Shown here: piece by piece, positions 19,387 through 47,852 of the stretch
Position numbering within the stretch: the first letter of the stretch is position 1
How the letters are laid out: each line of letters starts with the position of its first letter
DNA from: an uncultured archaeon
Lineage (GTDB): Archaea > Asgardarchaeota > Lokiarchaeia > Sigyniarchaeales > SOKP01
Assembly (NCBI GenBank): GCA_964632315.1
Contig: CAZWEM010000034.1
Coordinates: 1 to 51,009, forward strand
Direction: 5' to 3'
DNA: 51,009 bases
Program-made: the position numbers and the translations under genes
Notes under the pieces: generated by a model
What the model was told of the DNA's origin: nothing
Databases searched by the model: none
The model's input: the letters and a program-made list of their open reading frames with translations, nothing else

Positions 19387-21609
19387 ATTTTACGGCAAGT
19401 TTATATTTTAAAAGATGGAAATCTCATCTATTATCGCCACTTTGGCAAAGCATTGAAAAAGGAAATGTTTGATTCGATAATTGATGATTTATTGGTAGAT
19501 GCTTTTGGAAAAAGTGGGAATAAAATTGACTATCATGATTATTATAAATATAGAATATCCTTTACCACTCAAGATGAGTTAAATCTAATCTTTATTTTTG
19601 TCACAGGGTTAACAGACAACTTTGATAATATTAAAAAAGAGTTATTTAAATGTAAGAAAGAATTTCTCAATCTATTTGAAGATATTTTACTCCATAAATA
19701 TGATTCTAAAACGTTTGAAGTATTTGATCCTACGATTGATTCAATACATAGAAACCTACGTCCTAAAATTTCTTTAGTTGGATTTTCTGGGGTAGGTAAA
19801 ACTACAATTACTCGTTTAATCAAAGCTGAAGAAATCCCAATGCAACACATCCCAACAATTACAGGAGACATCGCAACAATTAGAATTGGCAAGCTTTATT
19901 TTCATCTTTGGGATTTTGCAGGACAAGAACAATTTAGTTATTTATGGAACAATTTTATTAAAGGGAGTGACGCAGTTTTATTAATTACTGATTCGTCATT
20001 AGAAAACATTGAAAAAAGCAAATTTTTCTTGGAGCTTATTAAGGAACAAGCAGCACAGGCTCACACTGCGATAATCGCAAACAAACAAGATCTAGCTGAT
20101 GCAATGAAGCCAGAACAAGTTGAAAAAATCCTGGGATTAAAAACTTATTCCATGATCGCAAAAGAATCAAAAAATCGAGATAAAATGATTCAAATTATTG
20201 CTGATATTTTAGAAATGAGTGCAGAAGTTTCACCATTACTTAAACCACTTTTAGAAAGAGACACGTTGATAGAGAAGGCGACAAACAGCTTGGAGAATGC
20301 TGAGTTTGCTGAAGCAGCTGGTTTATTCGAAAAAATTAGTGATCTATGCATAGAATTAGGAGATGATTCTTTAGGTAGAGAATTTTTTCAAAAGGCTCAA
20401 AAAATTAAGGCGATGCTCGAGAAAACCACCAAACCAGTCCAAGTACCATCAGAGCCAGAAAAAGTGCCTCCACCCGTAGAGAAAGTTAAAAAAGCTCCAA
20501 CACCAATGCCTCCTCCAATAAAAACTGATAAGAAACCAATAGTCCAAGATCTCCCTCCTCAAACTACTAAAAAGCCAGAAGTGCCTTCAAGTCCTCCTTC
20601 TATTCCCAAGGAGCCCGTGAAAACGATTTCTACGGATAATGTAAAAAAACCTACACTTCCAAGCACTCCTGAACCATCGTTCCAGTCACCTCCTCCACCA
20701 CCGCCCCCTTCTTTAAAAAAACCAGAACTTGCATCTGTTCCTGCTACAAATAAGGAGTTAAAGGCACCTCAAGCATCTCCTCCAAAAGTCTTCTCAACTC
20801 TTGAGAGAACTTTAGATGGGTCAACTATGAAGGAAGGTGAAAAAGAGAAACTAACTTCTCCAATTAGTCAAGGAAAATCAATAAAAACCCCAGAGACCCC
20901 AAAATCTCCAGAGGATGAAAATTTAATTGATGCGAATATTAATTTGGAGCATGCTGGCCTAAAACTAAACCCAGATGACTTCATTGTTAAGCAAAGGCCT
21001 AAAACAGTAACAAATGTTCCCAAAGATGCTAAGAATAAATTAAAGACCTCCCCATACGATCTTGTCTCCAATAAACCGAACGGTCCTCCACCTTCTCCTC
21101 AACCAGTTGCTCCATTTAAGTTAATAGAAAAGGAACAAGCTGAAGTTCCAAAGACGCCTCTTATTCCACAAAATGAGCAAAATTCTGAAAAAACAGCACC
21201 ACCCCCTATCATTAAGCATCCAAAAGTAACTACAGTTCCGATTCAAAAGCACCCTGTCCCCCCACAAAGCCCAGGAACTCTACCAACACCCCCTCAACCG
21301 ATCAAACCCGCATCTGTTCCAGCAACTCCCTCTCAAGTTGAGGAACAAGAGATCAGTGCCGTTAAAGAGCAATCACCAGGTAAAGCGTCTCAAGAAATGA
21401 GTCAACAACAAAAATCGGAGTTAGAAAAGTCTCTAATGGATCTTAAAATAAAGAAAGCAAATTTATCGAAGATCGCTTTAGATTATGACATGAAGGAGTT
21501 AACTGGAGAAATTACGAGTGATGAGTTAAATGAAAAAAAGCAGAAGTTAGAAAAGATCGTAGAAAGCGTGAATAAGCAAATTGAGGATCTTGAGGGAATG
21601 TTAAAATAA
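19387..21609 (+). CDS. Multidomain small GTPase: longin-like, Arf-like GTPase, helical bundle, Pro-rich linker, C-terminal coiled coil
   Basis: G1 GFSGVGKT, G2 PT, G3 WDFAGQ, G4 NKQD. The frame is open upstream of TTG 19453 to ATT 19387, giving (M)LRQVYILKDGNLIYYRHF, a longin-type N-terminal beta-hairpin. Confidence 0.85.
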   Translation: MLRQVYILKDGNLIYYRHFGKALKKEMFDSIIDDLLVDAFGKSGNKIDYHDYYKYRISFTTQDELNLIFIFVTGLTDNFDNIKKELFKCKKEFLNLFEDILLHKYDSKTFEVFDPTIDSIHRNLRPKISLVGFSGVGKTTITRLIKAEEIPMQHIPTITGDIATIRIGKLYFHLWDFAGQEQFSYLWNNFIKGSDAVLLITDSSLENIEKSKFFLELIKEQAAQAHTAIIANKQDLADAMKPEQVEKILGLKTYSMIAKESKNRDKMIQIIADILEMSAEVSPLLKPLLERDTLIEKATNSLENAEFAEAAGLFEKISDLCIELGDDSLGREFFQKAQKIKAMLEKTTKPVQVPSEPEKVPPPVEKVKKAPTPMPPPIKTDKKPIVQDLPPQTTKKPEVPSSPPSIPKEPVKTISTDNVKKPTLPSTPEPSFQSPPPPPPPSLKKPELASVPATNKELKAPQASPPKVFSTLERTLDGSTMKEGEKEKLTSPISQGKSIKTPETPKSPEDENLIDANINLEHAGLKLNPDDFIVKQRPKTVTNVPKDAKNKLKTSPYDLVSNKPNGPPPSPQPVAPFKLIEKEQAEVPKTPLIPQNEQNSEKTAPPPIIKHPKVTTVPIQKHPVPPQSPGTLPTPPQPIKPASVPATPSQVEEQEISAVKEQSPGKASQEMSQQQKSELEKSLMDLKIKKANLSKIALDYDMKELTGEITSDELNEKKQKLEKIVESVNKQIEDLEGMLK

Positions 21610-25367: not shown

Positions 25368-26726
25368 TTAGAATCTATTTTTTTCCCTTTTTACAGTTTT
25401 ATTTTGAATCAAACGTAAAGAAAAAACACTAATTATTACAATACATGCTACTACTACTATATTTTCTTTAAAAAATAGATCAAATTTGTCTGGAGAATTG
25501 TCTGGAGTGTCATTTTTAATGTCTAAATACATATTCATTAACTTGAATATATCGGTATTATCAATAACACTGAGGTTAGTAAAACCAGAAAACTCTGTGT
25601 TATATCCAAAAAAGGGAACATTAGAATTAGAATGAGAAGTAGTTGACCAATCAACAGAAATATTATTAACTCTCTCAATTCTTATTAATTTATTTTCTTC
25701 TAGCGTGTTATTTGGCAGGGGGATATTATTATTCAAGGTGCTGTTTAAAATTTTTAAACCTCCTGTTTCATGATCAGCGGTAACTAACAATAAAACATCA
25801 TTATGCTCTTTGGAGAAAGAAATAGCCATATCTACTGCGTGAGTGAATTCAATTGTCTCTAAAGCCATATTAATTTCATCATTAGCGTGACAAGCGTGAT
25901 CAATTCTTCCTCCTTCGACCATTAAAAAAAAACCGTCTGGATCCTGAGATAGTATTTCGATGGCCTTCATTGTCATCTCAGCCAATGATGGAATCACTTC
26001 TTGCTCACGATCAATCTCATATGGCAGGTGAGAAGGTGCAAATAGTCCTATTAAATTATCCGAATCTGTCTCCATTAATTCAGAGCGATTACTTACAACG
26101 TCATATCCTCGTGCGTCTAATTGAATGAGTTGTGAAGTGGAGAAATAGTTACTACCTCCACCAAATAGAACATTAACAGTCGAATTCTCAGCAATCTGTC
26201 GTGAGATCTCGGTGGTATCGGATCTAGATTGCACATGAGTCATAAAAGCAGCAGGAGTCGCATGAGTTATCTCAGTTGTCGTGACAATTCCAGTGGATTT
26301 TCCAAGTTTATAAGAAATTTCCAGAATTGTTTCTAAAATCTCCGATAATGGAGAAATTGAAAGCATTCCATTATTTGTCTTATTCCCGGTTGCGATTGCA
26401 GTTGCCGCTGCCGCTGAATCCGTGATTAAATTATCTGCACTTCGGGTTGTTACATTTAACTGCATTGGTAACTGTTCAAGCGGAAATCGATTGTCCTTTC
26501 CAAGTTCTACCCATCTTGCAAGTTTCAAGTGTTCAAAACCCATTCCATCTCCTATCATTAATATTATACTTTTATTTGTTGTACTATTTGAGGATTTAAC
26601 ATCTCTTTTCGATTCTTGAGGATGATAAAATTCAAATTTTGCAATGAAATGTGTTTGACTTATGGTTAGTATTAAAAAGAAAACCAAAAGTGATTTTATG
26701 AATGAATAGGTATGGTTAGCTTTCAT
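25368..26726 (-). CDS. phoA: Alkaline phosphatase (PhoA family), secreted and C-terminally membrane-anchored
   Basis: IGDGMG, TDSAAAATA (catalytic Ser), THATPAAF, EGGRIDHACH, TADHETGG. Confidence 0.92.
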   Translation of the reverse strand: MKANHTYSFIKSLLVFFLILTISQTHFIAKFEFYHPQESKRDVKSSNSTTNKSIILMIGDGMGFEHLKLARWVELGKDNRFPLEQLPMQLNVTTRSADNLITDSAAAATAIATGNKTNNGMLSISPLSEILETILEISYKLGKSTGIVTTTEITHATPAAFMTHVQSRSDTTEISRQIAENSTVNVLFGGGSNYFSTSQLIQLDARGYDVVSNRSELMETDSDNLIGLFAPSHLPYEIDREQEVIPSLAEMTMKAIEILSQDPDGFFLMVEGGRIDHACHANDEINMALETIEFTHAVDMAISFSKEHNDVLLLVTADHETGGLKILNSTLNNNIPLPNNTLEENKLIRIERVNNISVDWSTTSHSNSNVPFFGYNTEFSGFTNLSVIDNTDIFKLMNMYLDIKNDTPDNSPDKFDLFFKENIVVVACIVIISVFSLRLIQNKTVKREKNRF

Positions 26727-29180: not shown

Positions 29181-29846
29181 CTAAGCTTCGACCGATATTT
29201 CACTTGATTCCGAAAAAGGTAGTTTCACCATTAGTTTGGTAGCGACCAAAGTAAGGCGATGCCCCAAGTGTCTCGCTAAGTTCAATTCATTCTCACTGGG
29301 CTTCCTTTCACCATTTTTACCTGCAATAGTTGAAGCTCCATAGGGAGAACCACCTGTAATCTGATCCATTCTCCTTTGCTCATCAAAAGAGTAAGGTAAT
29401 CCAACAAAAATCAAACCGTGGTGCAATAATGTGATTAAAGTCGTAATAATGGTAGTTTCTTGACCACCGTGTTGAGTTGCTGTACTTGTAAATACTGAAA
29501 CTGGTTTTCCAATGAGAGTACCCTTCATCCAATCTCCGCCAGTTTGATCCCAAAAATTTCTCATTTGCGCTGTCATATTTCCATATCGTGTAGGAGTTCC
29601 TACAATTATTCCATCAATGCCCTCTAAATCATTACGAGGATCCGCAATTGGCACCTCTTTCATGAGATTTTTAGCCTTTCTTACATTTTCATCCCAATAT
29701 TTTTCTGGCATGAGTTCTTCAACTGTCTTTATAATTGGTATTCCTCCTGCTTCTCTTACACCTTCTGCTACAGCTTTAGCCATTGTAAAGATATGTCCGT
29801 ACATGGAATAAAATAGAATCAGAATTTTCGGATGTGCTCTGCTTAT
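29181..29846 (-). CDS. wrbA: NAD(P)H:quinone oxidoreductase WrbA (flavodoxin-like)
   Basis: YSMYGH, GTPTRYGNM, FTSTATQHGGQE, GGSPYGAS. The ORF-track GTG at 29855 lies inside the GAGGTGA RBS; ATA 29846 proposed as start. Confidence 0.93.
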   Translation of the reverse strand: MSRAHPKILILFYSMYGHIFTMAKAVAEGVREAGGIPIIKTVEELMPEKYWDENVRKAKNLMKEVPIADPRNDLEGIDGIIVGTPTRYGNMTAQMRNFWDQTGGDWMKGTLIGKPVSVFTSTATQHGGQETTIITTLITLLHHGLIFVGLPYSFDEQRRMDQITGGSPYGASTIAGKNGERKPSENELNLARHLGHRLTLVATKLMVKLPFSESSEISVEA

Positions 29847-30095
29847 AAAAATCACCTCTTCATTTACTATATATTATTAATAATTAATCTGAGATTACTC
29901 ATTTCTTAAGAAGTTTAATTTCCCTTGAACAATTTCTTATTAAAAAATCAGTAATCGTCTCGTTTCACTATATCTAGGTGAAATTACTAATATATACCTC
30001 GTTATTATAGTTAAAATTCGTTTTCAAAGTTTTGCTTAATTTCAATATGCTTTTATTCGATAAAAAAGCAACCTAATCTCCCTTTTTCCAAGTCT

Positions 30096-32968: not shown

Positions 32969-33140
32969 GAGCTTGAAATCCGGAGATCTATTTTTTTAAA
33001 AAAGATTTGAAATGAGATACTGTTTAATTTTTAAAAAATATTATTAATCTATAAAATTTTCTTAATAAAATAGAAAGAGCATTTTTTAGAATGCAATATC
33101 TTCTATTATTATAAGAATAATCCAATTGGTTAATAAAATC

Positions 33141-36100
33141 ATGGAAAGAAATGAAAGTACAGCTCAAGAGGCTTTGAAATATTTAGATAATGCCCAAATA
33201 TTAGAAGAAAACGGGAAGCTAGAAGAAGCAATCGAAAATTACTTAACAGCTGCTGATTTTTTGAAAAAAAGTGGTTTCGCGGTTACAAGAGTAAATGATA
33301 TTTACGAGAGGGTTCAAGAATTAAAAGATTTTATTAGTAAGGAAAAAACATTAAGGCAAGCTCAGCTTGGTGCTCAATTAGAACAATTGCAAGAAAGAGC
33401 ATTTTCACTTTTAGACGCTGCTAATAAATTTGAAATTAGAGGTCAACTCAACGAAGCTATTGGGCAATATAATTCTGCCATTAATTTACTAGTTAACGCT
33501 GGATGGTCTGATATGCAATTAGAGAATTTGAGAGAAAAGGTGAATTCTCTTACTCTAAAACATGCTAAGAGCCAACAACAAAGCACCCAAAACATTGAAG
33601 GGGCGGAAACACAATTATCTCAGGCCCAAGTTGTTGGAGCATTTGGTAAGAAAAAAGACGCTGTAAAGGCTGAGGAACTACGTAAATTTTCAGAAGCTAA
33701 AGCCAAAGAAGAGAAAATCCAAAGTGATGCTTTCATTTACATTGATAACGCAAAATTTTATGAGCAAGATAGAAAATATGATAAAGCTATCGAGGCTTAT
33801 AAAAATGCAATTAATTTATTAAATTCTATAGGATGGCATAGTCAAACAAGTCAACTAGAATCAATTGTAGCCAAATTGGAAATAGATAAACGGAATTATG
33901 ATTCATTCAAGGAATCAAAGAAAGTTCGTAGTGGTGGAATTGAATATATTGAAGACTCTACTACAGAAAAAGAGAAAGAATTTCAAAAATCAGTAAAAAT
34001 TATTGAAGAACAGAAGGTAAATGAAGAGAAAATTCAATCGGAGGCTTTCAACCTTATTGATGAAGGGAAAAGCATGGAAAAAGAGCAAAATTATGATGAA
34101 GCTTTGAAGAAGTTCAGCGCAGCAATAAATTTATTTAATTCGATTGGATGGGATTCTTACATCCAGCCTGTAAGAAATTTAATCAAAGATATTAATGAAA
34201 AAGTTGCTCAAGAAGATAAGTTCAGAACTTTGAAGGAAAAGAGAGAAGTTGAATTAAAAAAAGTACAAGATTCCATTTATTTAAAAGAACAAGACGAAGT
34301 TCACAAAGAAACGAAAGAAATGGAAGAAAAACGAAAACTATTTGAGAAGAAAAGGGAACATGATTTACAAAAGGAAAAGGAACTTTTAGAGTTAATCGAA
34401 GAAGCAGATAAAATCGTCAAAAATGAGGATTTTGATGGAGCTATCACTAAATATCGGGAAGCTTTAAATCTAATAGGAAACTTGGGGCCTGGTTGGGAAT
34501 CATATAAAAATATGATTAACACAACCATCGATAACATAAAGAACCTTAAAGAAAAAAAATTATCTAGGGAAATCGAAACACAAAAGAAATTGGAGGAGCA
34601 AAATAAGCGAGACATGGAATTTCAAAAGCAAATGAATGAATTACTTAATCGAGAGCGTTCTCGCTTGAAAAAGGAAGAAGTTTCCATGCAAGCAAAAGAA
34701 GAATTATTCAAAAAAAGAGAACAAGGTAAAAAAGAGGCTTTTGAAATTTTGGAAAAAGCCCAAAATTATGTCAAATCTGGAGATCTAGATAATGCAATCC
34801 TCTCTTACCAAAAAGTAGCAAATAAATTTGCTGAAATACAATGGACTGATGAAATTCCAGTCATTGAAAATTCAATTCAAGAACTTCAAAAGAAAAAGGA
34901 AGAAAAAAAAGAATTAAAAAAAAGAGAGATGGAACGATCTATCCAGAAGATGAAAGAAGAGCAGGAATTTCAAGTACAAATTTTCAAGCAACTTAAATTA
35001 GAACGCAATAAGATTAAAGAAAAAGAGATTTCCATAAAAATAAAGGAGGAAGAAAAAAGTCATCAAGAACAACGGAAAAAAGGATTGTTTAGCATATTGG
35101 AACAAGCACAAGATCTTTTAATCCAAGGCGATTTTGATGATGCTATCAACAAGTATAATGAAGTCGTAAAAGTAATGGCAGAAATGCAATGGCATGACGA
35201 AATTGCACTGATACAAAATTCGATCTTAGATATCGAGAGAAAAAAGCGTGATTCACAATTACAAAAAGAAAAAGAATTAAGACAGAAAATCAAGAGAGAA
35301 CAAGAAGAACAAGAGTTTCAGAACCAAATAATTGACCAAATGCGTATACATCAAGAAAACTTAAAACAAAAGCAAATAGTAATTCGAGAAAGAGAAAAGG
35401 AGTTAGCGCACAGAGAAAAAATGAAGGGAAAAGCATTTGAATTATTGAATAAAGCTCAAGATTATTTGGCTATTACAAAATTTGATGAGGCCATTGATTT
35501 ATATCGAGATATAGCAAAAATATTTGCCCAAATTCAGTGGAAGGAGGAAATAGCATTAATTCAGCAATCAATTCAAGAGATTGAAAGAAAAAAAGTAGAA
35601 AAAGAAGAATGGAAACAAAAAACCATGCAGGATACCATAAAAAGAGAAAATGCTTACAAAGAATTTATCGATCAGATAAAACATCAAAGAGAAATTGAAC
35701 AAATTAGAATAGAAAAAGAGCTTGAATTGGTTGAGAAAAAGAAACTCCTTGATGCTGATAGTATTAAGAGACAAGATAATGCACTTAAATTGATTGAAGA
35801 AGCAGATGAGTTAATTCAACAAGAGAATTACAATCTTGCAATAATTAATTATGAAAATGCAGTGAAAATCCTAGAGGAGATTGGTTGGACAGGAGGGTAT
35901 TTGAATTTGTTACAAGAGACATTAGACACTATTAGTGCGAGGCAAAGAGAAAAGTTAGCTGAAAAGCAAAAGCAAGAAAAAATCTTAAAAGAAAAGCAAA
36001 AATCAGAAGAAGCCTTCCAAAAGAAATTGAGAGCAACAATGGAAGCAGAACAAAAACGCTTGCGATCAAAAGTAATTGAAATTCAAAAAAAGGAAGAAGT

Positions 36101-39100
36101 AAAGGTTCACGCAGAAAATCAAAAAGAAAAAGCGTTTAATTTATTAGAGGATGCTGAAAGATTACTAAATCAAAGAAATTATGAGGATTCAATAAAGCTG
36201 TATAGAGAATCGGAAATTATTTTAGCTGAAATTGAATACCCTACGGATATAATTAGAGAAATGATCCGCAAAATAGAGGTTCGAAGAAAAGAGGAAGAAC
36301 TTGCAAAAATTAAAGAGTCGGAGAAAGCCATTTTAGAGGAGAAAGAAGAAGCTGAGTTTCAAGAAAAAATTCAAAAGGTAATGCAGGAAGAGACTAAAAA
36401 ACTTCGAGATAAGCAGATAAAATTAGAAGAACAAGAAAAGCGCAAAAAATTATTAGAAGAAAGAAAGCAAGAGGCTTTTGAAATTTTAAATAAAGCAGAA
36501 GAAGAAGTCAGTATAAAAGCATACGAAAAAGCCCTTGCTTTGTATCGTAAAGCAGAGTTGATTTTAAATGAGATTCGATTTCCAACAGATTTATTAAAAG
36601 ATACAATTCGAAAGTTACAAATTAAAAAGAGCGATGAAGATCTTCTTAAGCAACAACAACTTGAACGTCAGATTGAAAAACAAAAAGAGGAAACAATTTT
36701 CCAAAATAAGATCTCGGATGGAATAAGAAGGGAAAAGAAGAGATTACGAGAAAAAGCAATGCTTTTAGAGAAAAAAGAGGAAATGACGAAAATTCATGAA
36801 AAATTACAAAATGAAGCTTTTAAGTTATTAGATTTAGCTCAAGAGATGACAGTTACGAGTGATTTAGAAGGTGCAATAAACAATTATAAGAAAGTAATGT
36901 CAATTTTTGAAGATATCGGTTGGAAGGATGAAATTCCCTTATTGAAAGAATCGATCCAAGTCTTAAGAATGAAACAAAATGAACAACAGACCTCTCAACA
37001 AAGTCAATTAGAGCAAAACCTGAAAATAGAAAAAGAAAACTCTGAATTTAACAGGATAATAGCTGAGCAGTCTCAACTTGAAAGAGAAAGATTATTAAAA
37101 CAACAAATTGAGTTAAGAGAAAGAGAAGAGGAGTTACAATTCCGAGAAAAAAGAAAAAATGAAGCCTTTATTAAAATTGATGAAGCTAATGAACTGGTTG
37201 AACTGGGCAAGTTTGAAGAAGCAAAGAGATTATATCTTGAGGTAGAAGATATCTTTGCAGAAATCCAATGGATAGATGAAATAGATATGATTCATAATTC
37301 AATAATAGAGATTGAGAAGAGAAAATGGGATAATCTTGTCAAAAAGCAAAAAGAATTGCAAGAGGATTTATATTTTGAGAAACTTGTACAAGATTTTCAA
37401 AACCAAATAGCACAAGAAACTCAAATTGAACAAGAAAAAATTAGAGAGAAAGAAGTAACGCTAAGGGAAAGAAAAGCAGAACTCAAATTGAGAGAAAATG
37501 AAAGAATTAAAGCATTTGAACTGCTTGATAAAGCAAGCAATTTGGTTGAATTGAAGAATTATGAAGAAGCTATAAGTATATATCGTGATGTTTCGCTAAA
37601 GTTTGCTCGAATCGGTTGGACTGAAGAAATTTCCGTAATAAATCAAGCAATTTATGATGTAGAGAAGAAGAGGACCGAAGCTGAATTGCTAAAACAAAGA
37701 GAGATCACAGAATCAGGTAAAAAAGAGAGAGAACGCTTACAGTTCATTAATAAGATTAAAATCGAAAGGGAGAAAGAAAAAGAAAAACTGAAGGAACAGA
37801 GAGAAAGAGTTGAAAAATTAGCAAAGCTTAAGGAATTAGGGAGTAAAAAACAAGAAATAGCATTTAAAAAGATAGAAGATGCAGATGATCTTATAAGACG
37901 TGAAGATTTTAATGAAGCAATTCAACTATATGGTCAAGCTCGTGATATCTTAAGTGAGATTGGCTGGACAGGCAGTTATATAAACCTGATCAATGAGAGC
38001 ATTGAATTTTCAAAGCTAAAAGTAATAGAAGTAGAACGTAGAAAAGAAAAAGAGAAAGCTTTAATCCAGAAACAAGCAGAAGAGCAAAAGATTTTTGAAG
38101 AAAGGTTAAAAAAGCAAGCAGTGGATGAACAAGAGAGATTGAAAAAGAAACGATTTGAAATTCAAAAAAGAGAAACGTTCACTAAATTATTGGAACAAAG
38201 AAAAGAAGAAGCTTTTAAAATAATGACACAAGCAGAATCTTTGTTGGAACAAGGATTATATGAAGAGTCATTAGGAAAATATAATGATGCTGAATTGATC
38301 CTCAGCGAAATTAATTTTCCAACAGATGCTGTACAAGAAATGGTTCAAAAAATTCGATCTAAAATTCAAGAACGAATCTTAAATGAACAAAGGGATTTGG
38401 AACTAAAAATACGAAAGGAAGAAGAAGATAAGAAATTCCTTAAGAAAGTATCAGAAGAAACACACAGAAAGGAGGAGGAGCTAAGGAAAAAGAAAGTTCA
38501 ATTAAAGAAACAAGAAGAACTTAGAGATTATATGGAAAAAAGAAAAACTGAAGCTTTTGATTTGTTAGATAACGCAGAAAGTTTAGTGAAAGAAAATGCA
38601 TATGATAGAGCTCTAGAATATTATAATAGGGCAGAAGTGATATTAAATGAAATCCAATTTCCAACTAATACTATCCGTGGTATGAGAGAAAAAGTAGCAT
38701 TTATGCAAAAGAAGAAACAGACCGCAGTATATAATGATCTCCAAACAAGGTTACGAAAGTCTCATGAAGAAAAAGAATTCCAACAGAAACTAGCAGAAGA
38801 AACCCTCAGAGAAAAACAAAGACTTGAAAATAAGAAGATCGAAGTCAGAGAAAAAGCATTTAAACAAGCAGAAATCGAAAAGCAAAAAGAAAGGGCATTT
38901 TCACTTTTAGATGATGCTAAATCCCTAATAGAAAAAGAAGATTTTGATGAAGCAATTGAGTTATATCGTAAAGCCATGCTTATTTTAAATGAGGTTCAAT
39001 TTCCTACAGGAGCTTTAGATGATATGATTAGAAAAATAATGCTGAAGAAAAAAGAGAAGGAAGAAATGGAAGAACTCGAATATCAACGTAAAGTTGATGC

Positions 39101-40163
39101 ATTTAAACGAGATAAGCAAATGGAAGTCATGATTCAAGAAAGAAAACGACAAGAAAGGGAACAAGCAGCAGCAAGAGCAGCGGCATTAAAGGAAAAAGAA
39201 AGATTGGTCCAAGAACAGATTAATTTTCGAGAAGCTGCATATTCTCTCTTAGAAGATGCCGATAAACACTTAAAAAAACAGGTTCCAGATTATGACAGAG
39301 CAATTTCACTCTACATTCAAGCCAGAAACACTTTATCTGAAAAAGTCGGATGGGAACCCGAAATCAACAATATCACCATGCTTATTAAGGATCTAGAAAA
39401 AGAAAAGAAGAATTATATTGAACGGAAGCAGTTAGAACGGGATTTAGCACTAAAAAGACAGAAAGAGTATGAAATTTTTCAAAACGAAGTAAAAAAGCGA
39501 AAGGAAGAATATGAGAAACAAAAAGCACAACAAGAACAAAAATTGCGTGATCTTTATCTTTCAAAAAGAAAGGCAGAAAAAATGAAAGAAGAGGGGTTAG
39601 CGTTAATAGACAGTGCCAAAGAATACGTAATTAACAGGGAATTTAATAAAGCATATGATGAATTTAATGATGCCATTAAAAAATTCACACAAATAGGTTG
39701 GACGGAACAGGCAAAATATATCAAAAAAGAAATAGAAAATGCTAAAGAAATAGAACAAAAGTTTAAGGATGAACGTTTAAAGTTAAAACAAGTACATGAA
39801 GACTTGTTAAGAAAGAAACAGAAGGAAGAGAGATTAATTAAAAAGAAAGAGCAAGAACTAAAATCGACTATTTCTGATGTAAGTGATCTGACTGGAGAGA
39901 TATCGGATGTAATTAAAACTAAAAAGCTGGAAATCGAAAAGAAAGAAAAAGAAAGGAAAGAAAAGATCAAACTAGATGCTAAAGATTATAGAAAAAGCAT
40001 GTCCGAAATGATACAGTTAAAGCAAGAATTGATTGAGGAAATTAAAAATTCGGAAGTAATGCTCAAAAAAGAACGAGAAAAGCATGAGATTGAAAAGGAT
40101 AAGGAAAAAGCAGAAGAAATTAAAAGAATGTTGAAGGATATATCAAAGAATAAAAAAACTTGA
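33141..40163 (+). CDS. Giant (about 2340 aa) alpha-helical repeat protein: 20 TPR/MIT-like units joined by charged coiled-coil segments
   Basis: Recurring AFxxLxxA...(Y/F)xxAIxxY...I(G/Q)W or I.(F/Y)P motif about every 115 aa, with E/K/Q/R-rich spacers. No TM or signal peptide. ORF is open from TTG 33126. Confidence 0.85.
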   Translation: MERNESTAQEALKYLDNAQILEENGKLEEAIENYLTAADFLKKSGFAVTRVNDIYERVQELKDFISKEKTLRQAQLGAQLEQLQERAFSLLDAANKFEIRGQLNEAIGQYNSAINLLVNAGWSDMQLENLREKVNSLTLKHAKSQQQSTQNIEGAETQLSQAQVVGAFGKKKDAVKAEELRKFSEAKAKEEKIQSDAFIYIDNAKFYEQDRKYDKAIEAYKNAINLLNSIGWHSQTSQLESIVAKLEIDKRNYDSFKESKKVRSGGIEYIEDSTTEKEKEFQKSVKIIEEQKVNEEKIQSEAFNLIDEGKSMEKEQNYDEALKKFSAAINLFNSIGWDSYIQPVRNLIKDINEKVAQEDKFRTLKEKREVELKKVQDSIYLKEQDEVHKETKEMEEKRKLFEKKREHDLQKEKELLELIEEADKIVKNEDFDGAITKYREALNLIGNLGPGWESYKNMINTTIDNIKNLKEKKLSREIETQKKLEEQNKRDMEFQKQMNELLNRERSRLKKEEVSMQAKEELFKKREQGKKEAFEILEKAQNYVKSGDLDNAILSYQKVANKFAEIQWTDEIPVIENSIQELQKKKEEKKELKKREMERSIQKMKEEQEFQVQIFKQLKLERNKIKEKEISIKIKEEEKSHQEQRKKGLFSILEQAQDLLIQGDFDDAINKYNEVVKVMAEMQWHDEIALIQNSILDIERKKRDSQLQKEKELRQKIKREQEEQEFQNQIIDQMRIHQENLKQKQIVIREREKELAHREKMKGKAFELLNKAQDYLAITKFDEAIDLYRDIAKIFAQIQWKEEIALIQQSIQEIERKKVEKEEWKQKTMQDTIKRENAYKEFIDQIKHQREIEQIRIEKELELVEKKKLLDADSIKRQDNALKLIEEADELIQQENYNLAIINYENAVKILEEIGWTGGYLNLLQETLDTISARQREKLAEKQKQEKILKEKQKSEEAFQKKLRATMEAEQKRLRSKVIEIQKKEEVKVHAENQKEKAFNLLEDAERLLNQRNYEDSIKLYRESEIILAEIEYPTDIIREMIRKIEVRRKEEELAKIKESEKAILEEKEEAEFQEKIQKVMQEETKKLRDKQIKLEEQEKRKKLLEERKQEAFEILNKAEEEVSIKAYEKALALYRKAELILNEIRFPTDLLKDTIRKLQIKKSDEDLLKQQQLERQIEKQKEETIFQNKISDGIRREKKRLREKAMLLEKKEEMTKIHEKLQNEAFKLLDLAQEMTVTSDLEGAINNYKKVMSIFEDIGWKDEIPLLKESIQVLRMKQNEQQTSQQSQLEQNLKIEKENSEFNRIIAEQSQLERERLLKQQIELREREEELQFREKRKNEAFIKIDEANELVELGKFEEAKRLYLEVEDIFAEIQWIDEIDMIHNSIIEIEKRKWDNLVKKQKELQEDLYFEKLVQDFQNQIAQETQIEQEKIREKEVTLRERKAELKLRENERIKAFELLDKASNLVELKNYEEAISIYRDVSLKFARIGWTEEISVINQAIYDVEKKRTEAELLKQREITESGKKERERLQFINKIKIEREKEKEKLKEQRERVEKLAKLKELGSKKQEIAFKKIEDADDLIRREDFNEAIQLYGQARDILSEIGWTGSYINLINESIEFSKLKVIEVERRKEKEKALIQKQAEEQKIFEERLKKQAVDEQERLKKKRFEIQKRETFTKLLEQRKEEAFKIMTQAESLLEQGLYEESLGKYNDAELILSEINFPTDAVQEMVQKIRSKIQERILNEQRDLELKIRKEEEDKKFLKKVSEETHRKEEELRKKKVQLKKQEELRDYMEKRKTEAFDLLDNAESLVKENAYDRALEYYNRAEVILNEIQFPTNTIRGMREKVAFMQKKKQTAVYNDLQTRLRKSHEEKEFQQKLAEETLREKQRLENKKIEVREKAFKQAEIEKQKERAFSLLDDAKSLIEKEDFDEAIELYRKAMLILNEVQFPTGALDDMIRKIMLKKKEKEEMEELEYQRKVDAFKRDKQMEVMIQERKRQEREQAAARAAALKEKERLVQEQINFREAAYSLLEDADKHLKKQVPDYDRAISLYIQARNTLSEKVGWEPEINNITMLIKDLEKEKKNYIERKQLERDLALKRQKEYEIFQNEVKKRKEEYEKQKAQQEQKLRDLYLSKRKAEKMKEEGLALIDSAKEYVINREFNKAYDEFNDAIKKFTQIGWTEQAKYIKKEIENAKEIEQKFKDERLKLKQVHEDLLRKKQKEERLIKKKEQELKSTISDVSDLTGEISDVIKTKKLEIEKKEKERKEKIKLDAKDYRKSMSEMIQLKQELIEEIKNSEVMLKKEREKHEIEKDKEKAEEIKRMLKDISKNKKT

Positions 40164-44727: not shown

Positions 44728-45324
44728 ATGGATTATGTGAAAGTATATAAAAAGAAAGTCGTTTTTAATGGAGAAGTGCTTAATTTAGAAAGCTACAAAA
44801 TTAAAAAAATAAATGATATCAAGAAGCTCCAAAAGCATTATAATTTAAGAGAATTATATTTAGAAAAAAACCAAATACCTAATTTGCAGGGTTTAAAGCC
44901 CCTTATTAATCTGGAAAAACTGCATTTAGAAGCGAATAAGATTAGCAAAATTGAGGGTTTAAAATATTTGGGGAATCTTAAAGAACTCGAGTTGAGGGGA
45001 AACCAAATTACACAAATCGAAGGATTAGAAACATTGACTAATTTGAAAGATCTTGACTTATCTTATAATCAAATCAGAGAAATTGAGGGCTTAGAGACAT
45101 TACTCAACCTCGAGAGATTAAACTTGAGTCATAATAACCTTTTAGAAATAAAAGGTTTAAACAACTTAAAAAACTTGAAGCAATTATATCTTTCTCACAA
45201 TAATATTTCCTCCATAAAGGGCTTAGAAAATCTACCCAGTTTAAATCATATTGAATTGAATGACAATCCCATTTCAAATAAAAACATTATCTCAAATTTT
45301 AAAGATTTAGAAGTAATAATTTGA
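44728..45324 (+). CDS. Leucine-rich repeat protein (SDS22-like 22-aa repeats)
   Basis: About 7 repeats of LxxLxLxxNxIxxIEGLxxLxN. Confidence 0.92.
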   Translation: MDYVKVYKKKVVFNGEVLNLESYKIKKINDIKKLQKHYNLRELYLEKNQIPNLQGLKPLINLEKLHLEANKISKIEGLKYLGNLKELELRGNQITQIEGLETLTNLKDLDLSYNQIREIEGLETLLNLERLNLSHNNLLEIKGLNNLKNLKQLYLSHNNISSIKGLENLPSLNHIELNDNPISNKNIISNFKDLEVII

Positions 45325-45373: not shown

Positions 45374-46570
45374 TTAAAATTCAATTAATTTGTGTAATTT
45401 TTCACGTGAAACCTTATTTCCCTCGGATATTATTATTTTGGCTTCATCAACTTTATCCCAAACATTCCAGAATAATACACCTTTTACTTTATCGTCCTTT
45501 AAGTAATAAAGGATGCCTTCCTCGAACGGTTCTTTCCATACTTCTTCAATCTTTAATCTAGGATCTAATAGTCCAACTGCTTCATAACCATAATCGAATA
45601 AATCGGAATAAAAATATGATAATAGGTGATACTCATTTTCCTGACCCGTCATATTTTGACCGGCGGTCCATCCCATATTGATCGCATTGTCTTCATGCTC
45701 TACTCGTATTTTGGTATCTAAGGCCGGCACATAATAGCGAACAACATCTCCAGCAGCATATATATTTTTATCTCTTGTTTGAAGATACTTATTTACGACT
45801 ATTCCATCGTCAACTTCCAAATTCATTTCTTTTGCTAGTTTAGTATTAGGATTAATGCCTAAACCGGCGATAACCGCATCAAATTCCATCTTTTTCCCAT
45901 TCTTGGTCTCAACAATATATTTCTCCCCTTGTTTTTCTACTCGTGAGACGAATTCTCCAGAGAGAACATTTATCCCCTTCTCTTGATAATATTCATTCAG
46001 AAATTTGCTTAATTTCTCGGGGAAAATGAGACCACCAATCCCATATTCAGGAAAGATAATCGTAATCTCTGCGCCTGGTTTGTAGATTTTAATTCCAGCA
46101 GCTATTTCAGATCCTATGAAACCTCCTCCTATGACTCCAAAACTGTTCTTTTCATTAACTTTTTTGCGTAGTGTTTCAAAATCTGCTAAGGATCGGTAAT
46201 AGATAATTCCTGGGACTTTAATATTTGGAATTTCTTTCGGCGTTCCGCCCGTTGCAATAAGTAGTTTTTCATAGCTATATTCATCTCCATTCTCAACAAA
46301 TGCTTTTTTTTTGTCAGGATCAATTTTGGATACGGTTTGATTAAGATGGAATTCAACATCAACTTCAGCAGTTCCTAAATAAATATCATCCAACTCTTCT
46401 TCACCTTTCCATAAATCCTTCGATAATGGTGGACGAGCATATGGTTCCGAATTCTCTTTGCTGATTATCCCAATAGTTCCTTCTGAATCAATTTCACGAA
46501 TAGCTTGAGCCGCTGAATCAGCAGCCATTCCACCACCAATGATTAAATACTTGTAATTATAAACGGTAAT
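45374..46570 (-). CDS. FAD-dependent pyridine nucleotide-disulfide oxidoreductase (ferredoxin reductase / MDAR / AIF-like)
   Basis: PY.RPPLSK, LLIATGG, IGGGFIGSE, IYAAGD, RVEH, YFYSD. The FAD-binding YLIIGGGMAA lies upstream of ATG 46528 and needs a start at ATT 46570. Confidence 0.9.
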   Translation of the reverse strand: MTVYNYKYLIIGGGMAADSAAQAIREIDSEGTIGIISKENSEPYARPPLSKDLWKGEEELDDIYLGTAEVDVEFHLNQTVSKIDPDKKKAFVENGDEYSYEKLLIATGGTPKEIPNIKVPGIIYYRSLADFETLRKKVNEKNSFGVIGGGFIGSEIAAGIKIYKPGAEITIIFPEYGIGGLIFPEKLSKFLNEYYQEKGINVLSGEFVSRVEKQGEKYIVETKNGKKMEFDAVIAGLGINPNTKLAKEMNLEVDDGIVVNKYLQTRDKNIYAAGDVVRYYVPALDTKIRVEHEDNAINMGWTAGQNMTGQENEYHLLSYFYSDLFDYGYEAVGLLDPRLKIEEVWKEPFEEGILYYLKDDKVKGVLFWNVWDKVDEAKIIISEGNKVSREKLHKLIEF

Positions 46571-46943
46571 GTTTTTTCAACTCCTTTTGTGTCAAGTTTT
46601 TTACTATTTCTAAAATAGTTCTCATTTCAATATGATCATAATTAGACTTATTTATCTATAGCTTATGAACTATATACGATAATGTGACAAAAGTTTAATT
46701 TAAAAACCTATAAGCTCAAAATCAACTTTATTTAATAAAATTCTTTTAATAATCTTTCAATCGAGTCATTCATTATCCATGTCAAGATAAATCGATATCG
46801 ATATAAGTGAATGATATTAGAATTCTTATCAAAATTAATAATAACCTTTTTTTCTGTAAATCAACATGTATAATATGGAAAGAACGAGTAGATCCATTTA
46901 TTCATAAGGATTCATATATTGGGGGATAAAAATAAACGTAAGG

Positions 46944-47852
46944 GTGCAGAAATCTAAATCGAGTCACCATCAATTTTATGAAAGAGAAAATTGTTGCGAT
47001 AATCCGAGTTATAGAATTAAGAATGGACAAATAGTGTGTATCAATTGCGGAATGATTTCAGGACAGTGCTTTGTCACCCATGAAAAAAGAGCTTATACAA
47101 AATTAGAGGTTAATAATAGGAGACACAATGAACCCGCTTGGAGAGAATTTGGTCCAAGAACAATGTTATCAACAAATAACTGTGATTTCCAAGGAAAAAC
47201 TTTGAGTGCTAAGAGCCGAACTTTGATGACAAGATTGATAAAAATCCAAAGATCATTAGTAAATTCATTAGAACGAAATTTTTGGGAAGCAAAGCCAAAA
47301 TTGAAAAAACTTGCTTATAAAATTAACATACCAGCTTATATTCAAGATACCGCTTGGAGAATATATTGCGAGGTTGCAAAAAAGAGATTAACAATGGGGA
47401 GGTCAATTGATGGATTTGTAAGTGCCTCCTTGTATGCTGCGATTAGAGTTCATGGGTATCCCAAATTACTTGAAGAAGTGTGTGAAGGTTCAATGGTACC
47501 CCAACGTACCTTCTTTCGTTCCTTAGGAATGATTGTCAGAGATATATTACCCATTTTGGATTATCATTACCAACCGATTTCTGAAGACCAGCTTATTTTC
47601 TTGATTGGGAATAAGCTAGGTTTTCCGATGGATGTACAGATGGAAGCGCTTAAAATAATGAATCGTGCTTTTAAGAACAATTCTGCCACAATCGGAAAAG
47701 ATCCTAAGGGTATAGCTGCTTCAACCCTTTATGTAGCTGCTAAGAGATTCCACATGAATAAAACTCAAACGGAAATTTCAGATGCAGCAAAAATCACGGA
47801 AGTAACTCTAAGAAGTCGGTTAAACGATATCAAACATTTTATAAGCTATTAA
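46944..47852 (+). CDS. tfb: Transcription initiation factor IIB (TFB) paralogue
   Basis: Zinc ribbon CC...VCINCG; two cyclin repeats (GRSI...A.LY.A.R; GKDPKGIAA..LY); C-terminal TQ.EI..AA.ITEVTLRSR. Confidence 0.92.
   Translation: MQKSKSSHHQFYERENCCDNPSYRIKNGQIVCINCGMISGQCFVTHEKRAYTKLEVNNRRHNEPAWREFGPRTMLSTNNCDFQGKTLSAKSRTLMTRLIKIQRSLVNSLERNFWEAKPKLKKLAYKINIPAYIQDTAWRIYCEVAKKRLTMGRSIDGFVSASLYAAIRVHGYPKLLEEVCEGSMVPQRTFFRSLGMIVRDILPILDYHYQPISEDQLIFLIGNKLGFPMDVQMEALKIMNRAFKNNSATIGKDPKGIAASTLYVAAKRFHMNKTQTEISDAAKITEVTLRSRLNDIKHFISY

Follow-up and report, generated by a model that had tools for sequence, protein, structure and literature searches.

NCBI translation table 11 includes ATT, ATC and ATA among its alternative initiators, and the Escherichia coli genes infC, which encodes IF3, and pcnB are bacterial genes that start with AUU behind a Shine-Dalgarno (SD) sequence. 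Bacterial AUU starts are found in a handful of genes per genome, and the AUU of infC serves autoregulation. The infC codon and its role have been described (PMC4705826), and reviews of archaeal initiation permit GUG and UUG besides AUG (PMC4705826, PMC7531240). A literature search covering open papers and preprints returned no paper on routine AUU, AUA or AUC starts in Asgard archaea. Here we analyze a gene for an AIF-like FAD-dependent oxidoreductase that lies on the minus strand of a 51,009-nucleotide contig (hereafter the window; GenBank CAZWEM010000034.1) of an uncultured lokiarchaeial archaeon. The evidence, which is comparative and statistical throughout, points to a working enzyme that is very probably translated from AUU 46570, behind an SD box, with the codon presumably read by the initiator Met-tRNA.

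The AIF-like oxidoreductase and its reading frame

The source assembly (GCA_964632315.1, here G000) comprises 4.45 Mb at 33% GC, with a completeness of 99.5% and a contamination of 8.6%, and the window is its contig C34. The following features define the gene:

45374..46570, minus strand: coding sequence of the AIF-like FAD-dependent pyridine-nucleotide oxidoreductase, 398 codons from ATT, stop codon at 45374-45376; assigned from Pfam, the AIFM1 match and orthologs
46568..46570, minus strand: predicted start codon ATT, 8 codons before the Leu of LIIGGG, at the ATG/ATT position of the orthologs
46577..46584, minus strand: SD box GGAGtTGA, a 7/8 match to the genome motif GGAGGTGA, ending 6 nt before ATT
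46577..46579, minus strand: in-frame TGA closing the frame upstream, identical to the last three bases of the SD box
46578..46580, minus strand: out-of-frame TTG within the SD box, not a start; its own frame reaches TAA after 7 codons
46526..46528, minus strand: internal ATG, codon 15, the start used in public gene calls and residue 4 of the G-x-G-x-x-A motif
46529..46537, minus strand: GGT GGT GGA, encoding the glycines of the dinucleotide-binding loop for FAD, kept in all orthologs with synonymous changes only

On the minus strand, positions 46586-46526 read AAGGAG (46586-46581), TTG, a run of six A (A6), C, and then ATT ACC GTT TAT AAT TAC AAG TAT TTA ATC ATT GGT GGT GGA ATG. When this segment is read in frame from the TGA (46579) to the ATG (46528), AAA AAC precede the ATT and the series continues unbroken to GGA. 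The focal frame contains no ATG, GTG or TTG between these two points, and its sole canonical start is the ATG that encodes the Met of the motif. A list of open reading frames (ORFs) built with canonical starts holds the gene only in this ATG form of 384 amino acids. The same form is recorded in NCBI and JGI/IMG, and occurs in public collections for this genome and for one named Promethearchaeota metagenome-assembled genome.

Pfam assigns the protein to Pyr_redox_2 (6.8e-55, 187 bits, cut-off 26.1) and AIF_C (2.9e-16, 60.6 bits). An N-terminal GxGxxG/A FAD loop following strand beta-1, together with Pfam scores over the curated cut-offs, places it among the Pyr_redox_2/AIF-like proteins. Position 1 of the Pyr_redox_2 profile falls on residue 8 of the stop-bounded frame, in the YKYLIIGGG stretch and upstream of the internal ATG. 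The best solved relatives, found by matching to the PDB, are the mitochondrial human AIF/AIFM1 (1.5e-64) and putidaredoxin reductase. In the alignment to human AIF, the focal GGGMAA falls on the GGGTAA of the FAD loop, with the Met of the internal ATG at the position of an AIF Thr. The internal ATG thus specifies residue 4 of the FAD loop, and a protein started there would therefore lose strand beta-1 and the glycines.

This location within the G-x-G-x-x-A loop bears directly on a start at the internal ATG 46528, which would give a truncated and probably inactive product, or would mark a gene decaying after the loss of its ATG. Such a start has on its side the lack of any other canonical codon in frame and the usage of both public databases, but no SD stands ahead of it, and the 398-codon frame is intact in a genome of 33% GC. 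Moreover, the 14 codons upstream are conserved as protein, with synonymous changes, across a clade of orthologs that has kept ATT in several species (see below). We regard this alternative as highly unlikely.

Shine-Dalgarno geometry ahead of the ATT codon

The anti-SD sequence was deduced from the 5-mers enriched upstream of start codons. Ahead of the first ATGs of 3,329 long ORFs, GGAGG, GAGGT, AGGTG and GGTGA are enriched 2.3-2.6-fold, and GGTGA begins at -10 to -12 before first ATGs in this genome. The window segment AAGGAGTTGA holds GGAGtTGA, in which GtTGA begins at -11 of the ATT, and the resulting 6-nt gap equals the modal spacing of the genome. Since GGAGtTGA is read as the SD box, the nearby TTG and the in-frame TGA are merely parts of it. 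The identical box GGAGTTGA, again followed by 6 nt, stands ahead of a CTG start on contig C1; the ortholog of that gene in the related genome G016 has GTG. The layout of an SD ending in TGA, two codons and a start recurs genome-wide, with a peak of ATG two codons after TGA-ending boxes.

In the mechanism that we propose, a short leader carrying the SD box GGAGUUGA would pair with the 3' end of the 16S rRNA and bring the AUU, which lies 6 nt beyond the box, into the P site. An initiator Met-tRNA of the ordinary kind, with the anticodon CAU, would be accepted at AUU despite the third-base mismatch, and the strong SD may compensate for the weak codon. The protein would then begin Met-Thr-Val-Tyr and keep strand beta-1 and the glycine loop. 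The initiation factor aIF1, which appears to be AUU-started in this genus, might set the tolerance for near-cognate codons.

Position of the start codon in orthologs

Orthologs were gathered from related genomes and metagenomes, the metagenome locus search leaving out near-identical records, and each frame was read from its upstream stop. The named relatives are entered as 'Promethearchaeota archaeon' and thus belong to the Loki-type Asgard archaea. Focal residues 1-398 are covered by orthologs at 57-72% identity, and at all 16 loci of this range exactly 8 codons separate the position of the start from the Leu of L-I-I-G-G-G, with the frame closed 0-31 codons upstream of it. The codon is ATG at seven loci (L009, L010, L011, L012, L062, L064 and L065) and ATT at nine, namely the window, the G016 group (L008/L061/L068 and L063/L074) and L066/L075/L076. 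The last three read GAGGTGA gaa TAA CTC ATT AAA, in which a perfect SD is followed by a stop two codons ahead of the ATT, and the internal ATG is the first canonical start. In more distant orthologs, at 50% identity or below, the start is ATG or GTG and lies two codons farther downstream.

In a maximum-likelihood tree the ATT genes form one clade (support 99/97), within which L062, the sister of G016, represents a single reversion to ATG. The clade spans about 36% protein divergence and several GTDB species, and ATT has therefore been kept while the protein was under selection. A comparison of the window with G016 over the codons of Y-x-Y-L-I-I-G-G-G reveals four synonymous differences, the sole residue change being at x. 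Judged on these alignments, the conservation of the presumed ATT start is unlike what an assembly error or a dying gene would leave.

The orthologs also bear on the possibility that the true start is TTG 46580, either because the assembled A6 run is one base too long or through a one-base slip of the ribosome or polymerase on G-AAA-AAA-C. A run of five A would bring the TTG in frame, homopolymer runs are typical sites of assembly error, and in G016 and its near relatives the TTG at the same place is in frame (AAGGAG TTG ATT ATT AAC ATT in G016). In the window, however, the TTG sits inside the SD box and is not preceded by a separate one, and L062 reads AAGGAG TCG AAT AAT AAA ATG, in which the TTG is lost and ATG takes the exact place of the ATT found in G016 and the window. 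No TTG accompanies the ATT of the L066/L075/L076 clade, and among the relatives no upstream TTG was found as a conserved start with its own ribosome-binding signal. As for slippage, the zero-frame codons form no X-XXY-YYZ heptamer, and an A6 run is short for slippage during transcription. Two strain variants of 99% identity to the focal protein (P0002 and P0003, on four other contigs) are likewise called at 384 amino acids and not longer, which counts weakly in the same direction. A start at the TTG is thus very improbable.

The N-terminus might also arise from a near-cognate start at ATC 46543 or ATT 46540, from ribosomes reading through the TGA, or by way of a small mRNA intron that connects the frame to an upstream ATG. 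Two more ATT/ATA/ATC (ATH) codons do lie in frame just before GGT GGT GGA, ARAGORN finds a tRNA-Sec in the genome, and at least one gene of this genome contains a small out-of-frame insert. Yet ATC 46543 and ATT 46540 have no SD and would cut strand beta-1. Read-through was rejected, as further TGA, TAA and TAG stops follow within 20 codons upstream of the TGA, and an upstream exon was rejected as unneeded, given that the ATG orthologs start exactly at the ATT position. We consider these routes scarcely credible.

Several observations weigh against an SD-led start at ATT 46570. The use of SD sequences is modest in this genome, where about 5% of first ATGs have a box with at most 2 mismatches, and SD sequences have been reported as not prevalent in a cultured Lokiarchaeon (PMC7531240). 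Among the orthologs the SD spacing varies from 6 to about 10 nt, and G016 has its in-frame TTG 4 codons upstream of the ATT. Neither a profile search nor tblastn with the G016 protein found SUI1/aIF1 in G000, despite the rated completeness of 99.5%; the gene may have been missed by the assembly or may truly have been lost. The 3' end of the 16S rRNA is not in the G000 assembly, and ARAGORN, run on the whole assembly, returned 11 tRNAs, or 29 when introns were allowed, none with the anticodon CAT.

Nevertheless, the start position is invariant among the orthologs, ATT is shared by a whole clade, the SD geometry fits and there is no canonical alternative, and for these reasons ATT 46570 is very probably the start. 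A preliminary description of this DNA had proposed the same codon. Its reading of 46586-46526 is correct to the base, including the in-frame TGA (TGA AAA AAC ATT) and the out-of-frame TTG, and its view that an ATG start would delete the FAD loop of an intact 398-codon gene agrees with the start of the Pfam profile and the alignment to AIF. The N-terminal mis-annotation that it anticipated is present in NCBI and JGI/IMG, whose 384-residue form lacks the loop. The one-nucleotide indel in the A6 run that it named, which would bring the TTG in frame, is disfavored by the position of the TTG within the SD, by its replacement in L062 and by its absence from L066/L075/L076.

Predicted near-cognate starts at two further genes of the window

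Two other genes of the window had been put forward as starting with ATT or ATA:

19387..21609, plus strand: Arf-like small-GTPase-domain protein, start ATT 19387, Pfam Arf 8.3e-23
29181..29846, minus strand: FMN-reductase/flavodoxin-like protein, ATA 29846 lying 5 nt after GAGGTGA, Pfam FMN_red 6.4e-12

In the first of these proteins the Arf-type domain comprises residues 125-257, and the conserved N-terminal 120 residues or so match no Pfam family. The window reads TAG ATT ATA ATT TTA at this site, with AAGGTAG, whose TAG is in frame, 6 nt upstream of the start. The codon before LRQV(YI) is ATT, ATC or ATA in 13 of the 14 orthologs from the genus and ATG in one; the same codon is ATG in four and a GVG-type GTG in one of five genomes of other families. 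A (G)GTGA-type box stands upstream in 13 relatives, at a gap of one codon to 6 nt, and its TGA serves as the in-frame stop. In the window, the first canonical start would remove 22 conserved residues. On this comparative evidence, the predicted near-cognate start at 19387 is as strong a case as that of the focal gene.

At 29846 the window reads GAGGTGA TTTTT ATA, and the ATA aligns with the ATG of the ortholog in genome G037. An in-frame GTG lies at 29855, inside the SD of the gene, and for this reason ATA 29846 is regarded as only the probable start. Of the three ATT/ATA starts originally proposed among about 40 genes, those of the focal gene and of 19387 are thus borne out, whereas 29846 stays at the level of probability. 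Three cases in some 40 genes would be above the genome average but are not implausible.

Predicted near-cognate starts across the genome

When the spacer is 6 nt, the TGA of GGTGA shares the frame of the start, and the box itself then bounds the ORF. This applies to 55 of the 3,316 non-shadow ORFs that are 150 codons or longer. At the codon two places beyond the TGA, 19 of the 55 have ATG, GTG or TTG, 17 have ATT, ATA or ATC, 4 have CTG or ACG, and 5 have one of five AT-rich control codons. At the five neighboring positions the ratio of ATH to control codons is 30:81, so that ATH codons are enriched at 6 nt with an odds ratio (OR) of 9.2 (Fisher, p=1.4e-5). No ATH enrichment was found after the weaker boxes AGTGA, GATGA and TGTGA (OR 1.1), and the near-cognate codons therefore appear to go with the strongest SD boxes. 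When up to 2 mismatches to GGAGGTGA were allowed, 21 ORFs, including the focal gene, had a near-cognate codon at that position, compared with 33 that had a canonical one. In pre-start regions, an SD at 5-7 nt precedes 1.5% of ATA and 1.2% of ATT codons, 0.5% of AAT/TAT/TTA, 5.3% of ATG and 5.6% of TTG.

For an ortholog survey, stop-bounded ORFs from 717 kb of G016 were paired with those of G000, which yielded 451 robust pairs. In 30 of the G000 genes the protein alignment begins 8 or more codons ahead of the first canonical start. Between 9 and 11 of these are clean cases of an SD with ATT, ATA, ATC or CTG, and in most of them the two species share the type of codon; the others are explained by overlap with the upstream gene or by a conserved SD region ahead of an ordinary start. 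Clean near-cognate starts thus amount to about 2% of the 451 pairs, which is a lower bound, since a near-cognate start that is closely followed by a canonical codon escapes such a survey.

The genome-wide pattern might still be an artifact, in which ATH codons are common in AT-rich leaders, upstream conservation stems from overlapping genes or untranslated regions, and ATT serves as a start in isolated genes alone. Of the 30 long extensions, about two thirds were indeed false positives of this kind. A strict SD-anchored scan (at most 1 mismatch, 163 sites) failed to set ATT/ATA apart from the AT-rich background, and to the null result behind the weaker boxes may be added the GGTGA test on the 717-kb G016 sample, which at n=5 is underpowered. 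However, the enrichment is position-specific, being seen 6 nt after GGTGA only and relative to composition-matched codons, and the clean cases have an ATH codon in both species. The same kind of codon at 19387 in 13 of 14 genus orthologs, where other families have ATG or GTG, also speaks against an artifact, as do 14 of 20 aIF1 loci that lack a canonical start before the zinc knuckle. We therefore judge an artifactual origin of the pattern unlikely.

These results support a lineage-wide use of ATT, ATA and ATC starts, which by sequence comparison would involve dozens of genes in this genome (roughly 1-4%). The relaxed start-codon use that the preliminary description had ascribed to the lineage is in line with the in-frame TGA test, the ortholog survey, the gene at 19387 and the ATT of aIF1 in the genus. 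The share of clean near-cognate starts in the ortholog survey bears on a check that it had suggested, a genome-wide comparison of homology-defined N-termini with the available start codons.

Two further genes were noted in the course of the survey. A 381-codon gene of G000 (C1:+93752) has ATT where G016 has ATG (TAT TAT ATT ATT versus TAT TAC ATG ATT). No SD is visible ahead of it, a conserved AT-rich stretch lies upstream, and it may represent a near-cognate start without an SD. On contig C10 (plus strand, about 26035-26110), a small-GTPase gene with an apparent start ATA, 6 nt after GGTGA, contains a 32-nt frame-breaking insert between GCT AAA and GAC GTA GGG AAA ACC, inside the P-loop. The insert, which resembles a small mRNA intron, contains a CCGA...TCGG hairpin, and G016 reads A-G-A-K-D-V-G-K-T without it.

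The initiation factor aIF1 in related genomes

The SUI1 family (aIF1) is present in 22 of 31 relatives, whose aIF1 loci include L103-L118. Twelve of the 20 loci fetched belong to the genus of the window and show AGGTTGTGA, three codons (9 nt) and then ATT AAA GA. Two further loci, each from a genome of genus g5, have ATA 6 nt after a box ending in TGA. All 14 are without a canonical start before the CxxC zinc knuckle, and the other genera of the order have ATG or TTG starts. In G000 itself, ARAGORN reports a tRNA-Ile(TAT) with a 59-nt intron at C35:150-304.

Neighboring genes

The focal gene is adjoined by a gene of the TFIIB family (archaeal TFB-type) at 46908-47852 on the plus strand, which is called from GTG 46944. 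Its start is ambiguous, as an in-frame ATA at 46932, 5 nt after a GGGGGA box, would lengthen the protein by 4 residues. Directly downstream of the focal gene, on the opposite strand, positions 44728-45324 (plus) encode a protein of 198 amino acids that consists almost entirely of leucine-rich repeats (LRR_4, LRR_8). A 2,345-codon-product ORF at 33126-40163 (plus; 2,345 aa) displays a strong G-over-C and A-over-T skew, with a GC skew of about 0.26-0.31 over 34-40 kb.

Implications and comparison with known systems

Gene callers restricted to ATG, GTG and TTG shorten or mis-start proteins of this kind. Asgard proteomes are much used in work on the origins of eukaryotic cell biology, and truncations, those of small GTPases included, distort domain and family analyses. 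The use of AUU, AUA and AUC at the percent level in archaea with homologues of eIF1 and eIF2 is relevant to the evolution of start-codon stringency between prokaryotes and eukaryotes. The association with the strongest SD boxes and an AUU-started aIF1 further suggest a regulatory loop that can be tested.

The focal protein shares with AIFM1 and the ferredoxin/putidaredoxin reductase family the fold of two Rossmann domains, the GGGxAA FAD loop, the GGGFIG NAD(P)H loop and an AIF_C-type C-terminal domain. It differs from AIFM1 in its prokaryotic size of 398 amino acids and in the absence of the N-terminal targeting and membrane segment of AIF. With respect to the start usage described for archaea, which comprises AUG, GUG and UUG on leaderless or SD-led mRNAs, the focal gene conforms to the pattern of an SD-led mRNA with a GGAGGUGA-type box.

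Fidelity factors that control their own synthesis provide a second comparison. Bacterial infC is autoregulated via its AUU and eIF1 via its poor start context, and aIF1, the homologue of eIF1, rejects AUU in Sulfolobus (PMC4705826). The aIF1 of the window's genus likewise appears to have a weak start, ATT; it differs in that it is known here by the layout of its start in relatives, and in that other genera of the order use ATG or TTG. The rejection of AUU by aIF1, the autoregulation of infC and eIF1 and the ATT start of aIF1 together suggest, by analogy, that aIF1 might exert feedback on its own AUU. The near-cognate starts may then reflect a relaxed fidelity of aIF1. A broader proposal would be that lokiarchaeial archaea run initiation at lowered stringency as a regulated system, in which dozens of genes with AUU, AUA, AUC, ACG or CUG (for enzymes, small GTPases and aIF1) stand behind the strongest SDs and are jointly tuned by the level of aIF1 with self-feedback; we put this forward tentatively, as a possibility with less than even prospects.

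The closest parallels are infC and pcnB of E. coli. As in these genes, the focal AUU stands at a normal distance behind an SD, at a position where orthologs have AUG, and is presumably read as Met by the initiator tRNA. By contrast, the focal gene encodes an ordinary redox enzyme and would be one of dozens (roughly 1-4%) in an archaeon that has aIF1/aIF2 and not IF3 and in which the near-cognate codons cluster behind the strongest SD boxes. What sets the present case apart is the scale, which extends to dozens of genes, the domain, namely Asgard archaea with aIF1/aIF2, the link to the strongest SD boxes, and the fact that aIF1 itself is affected.

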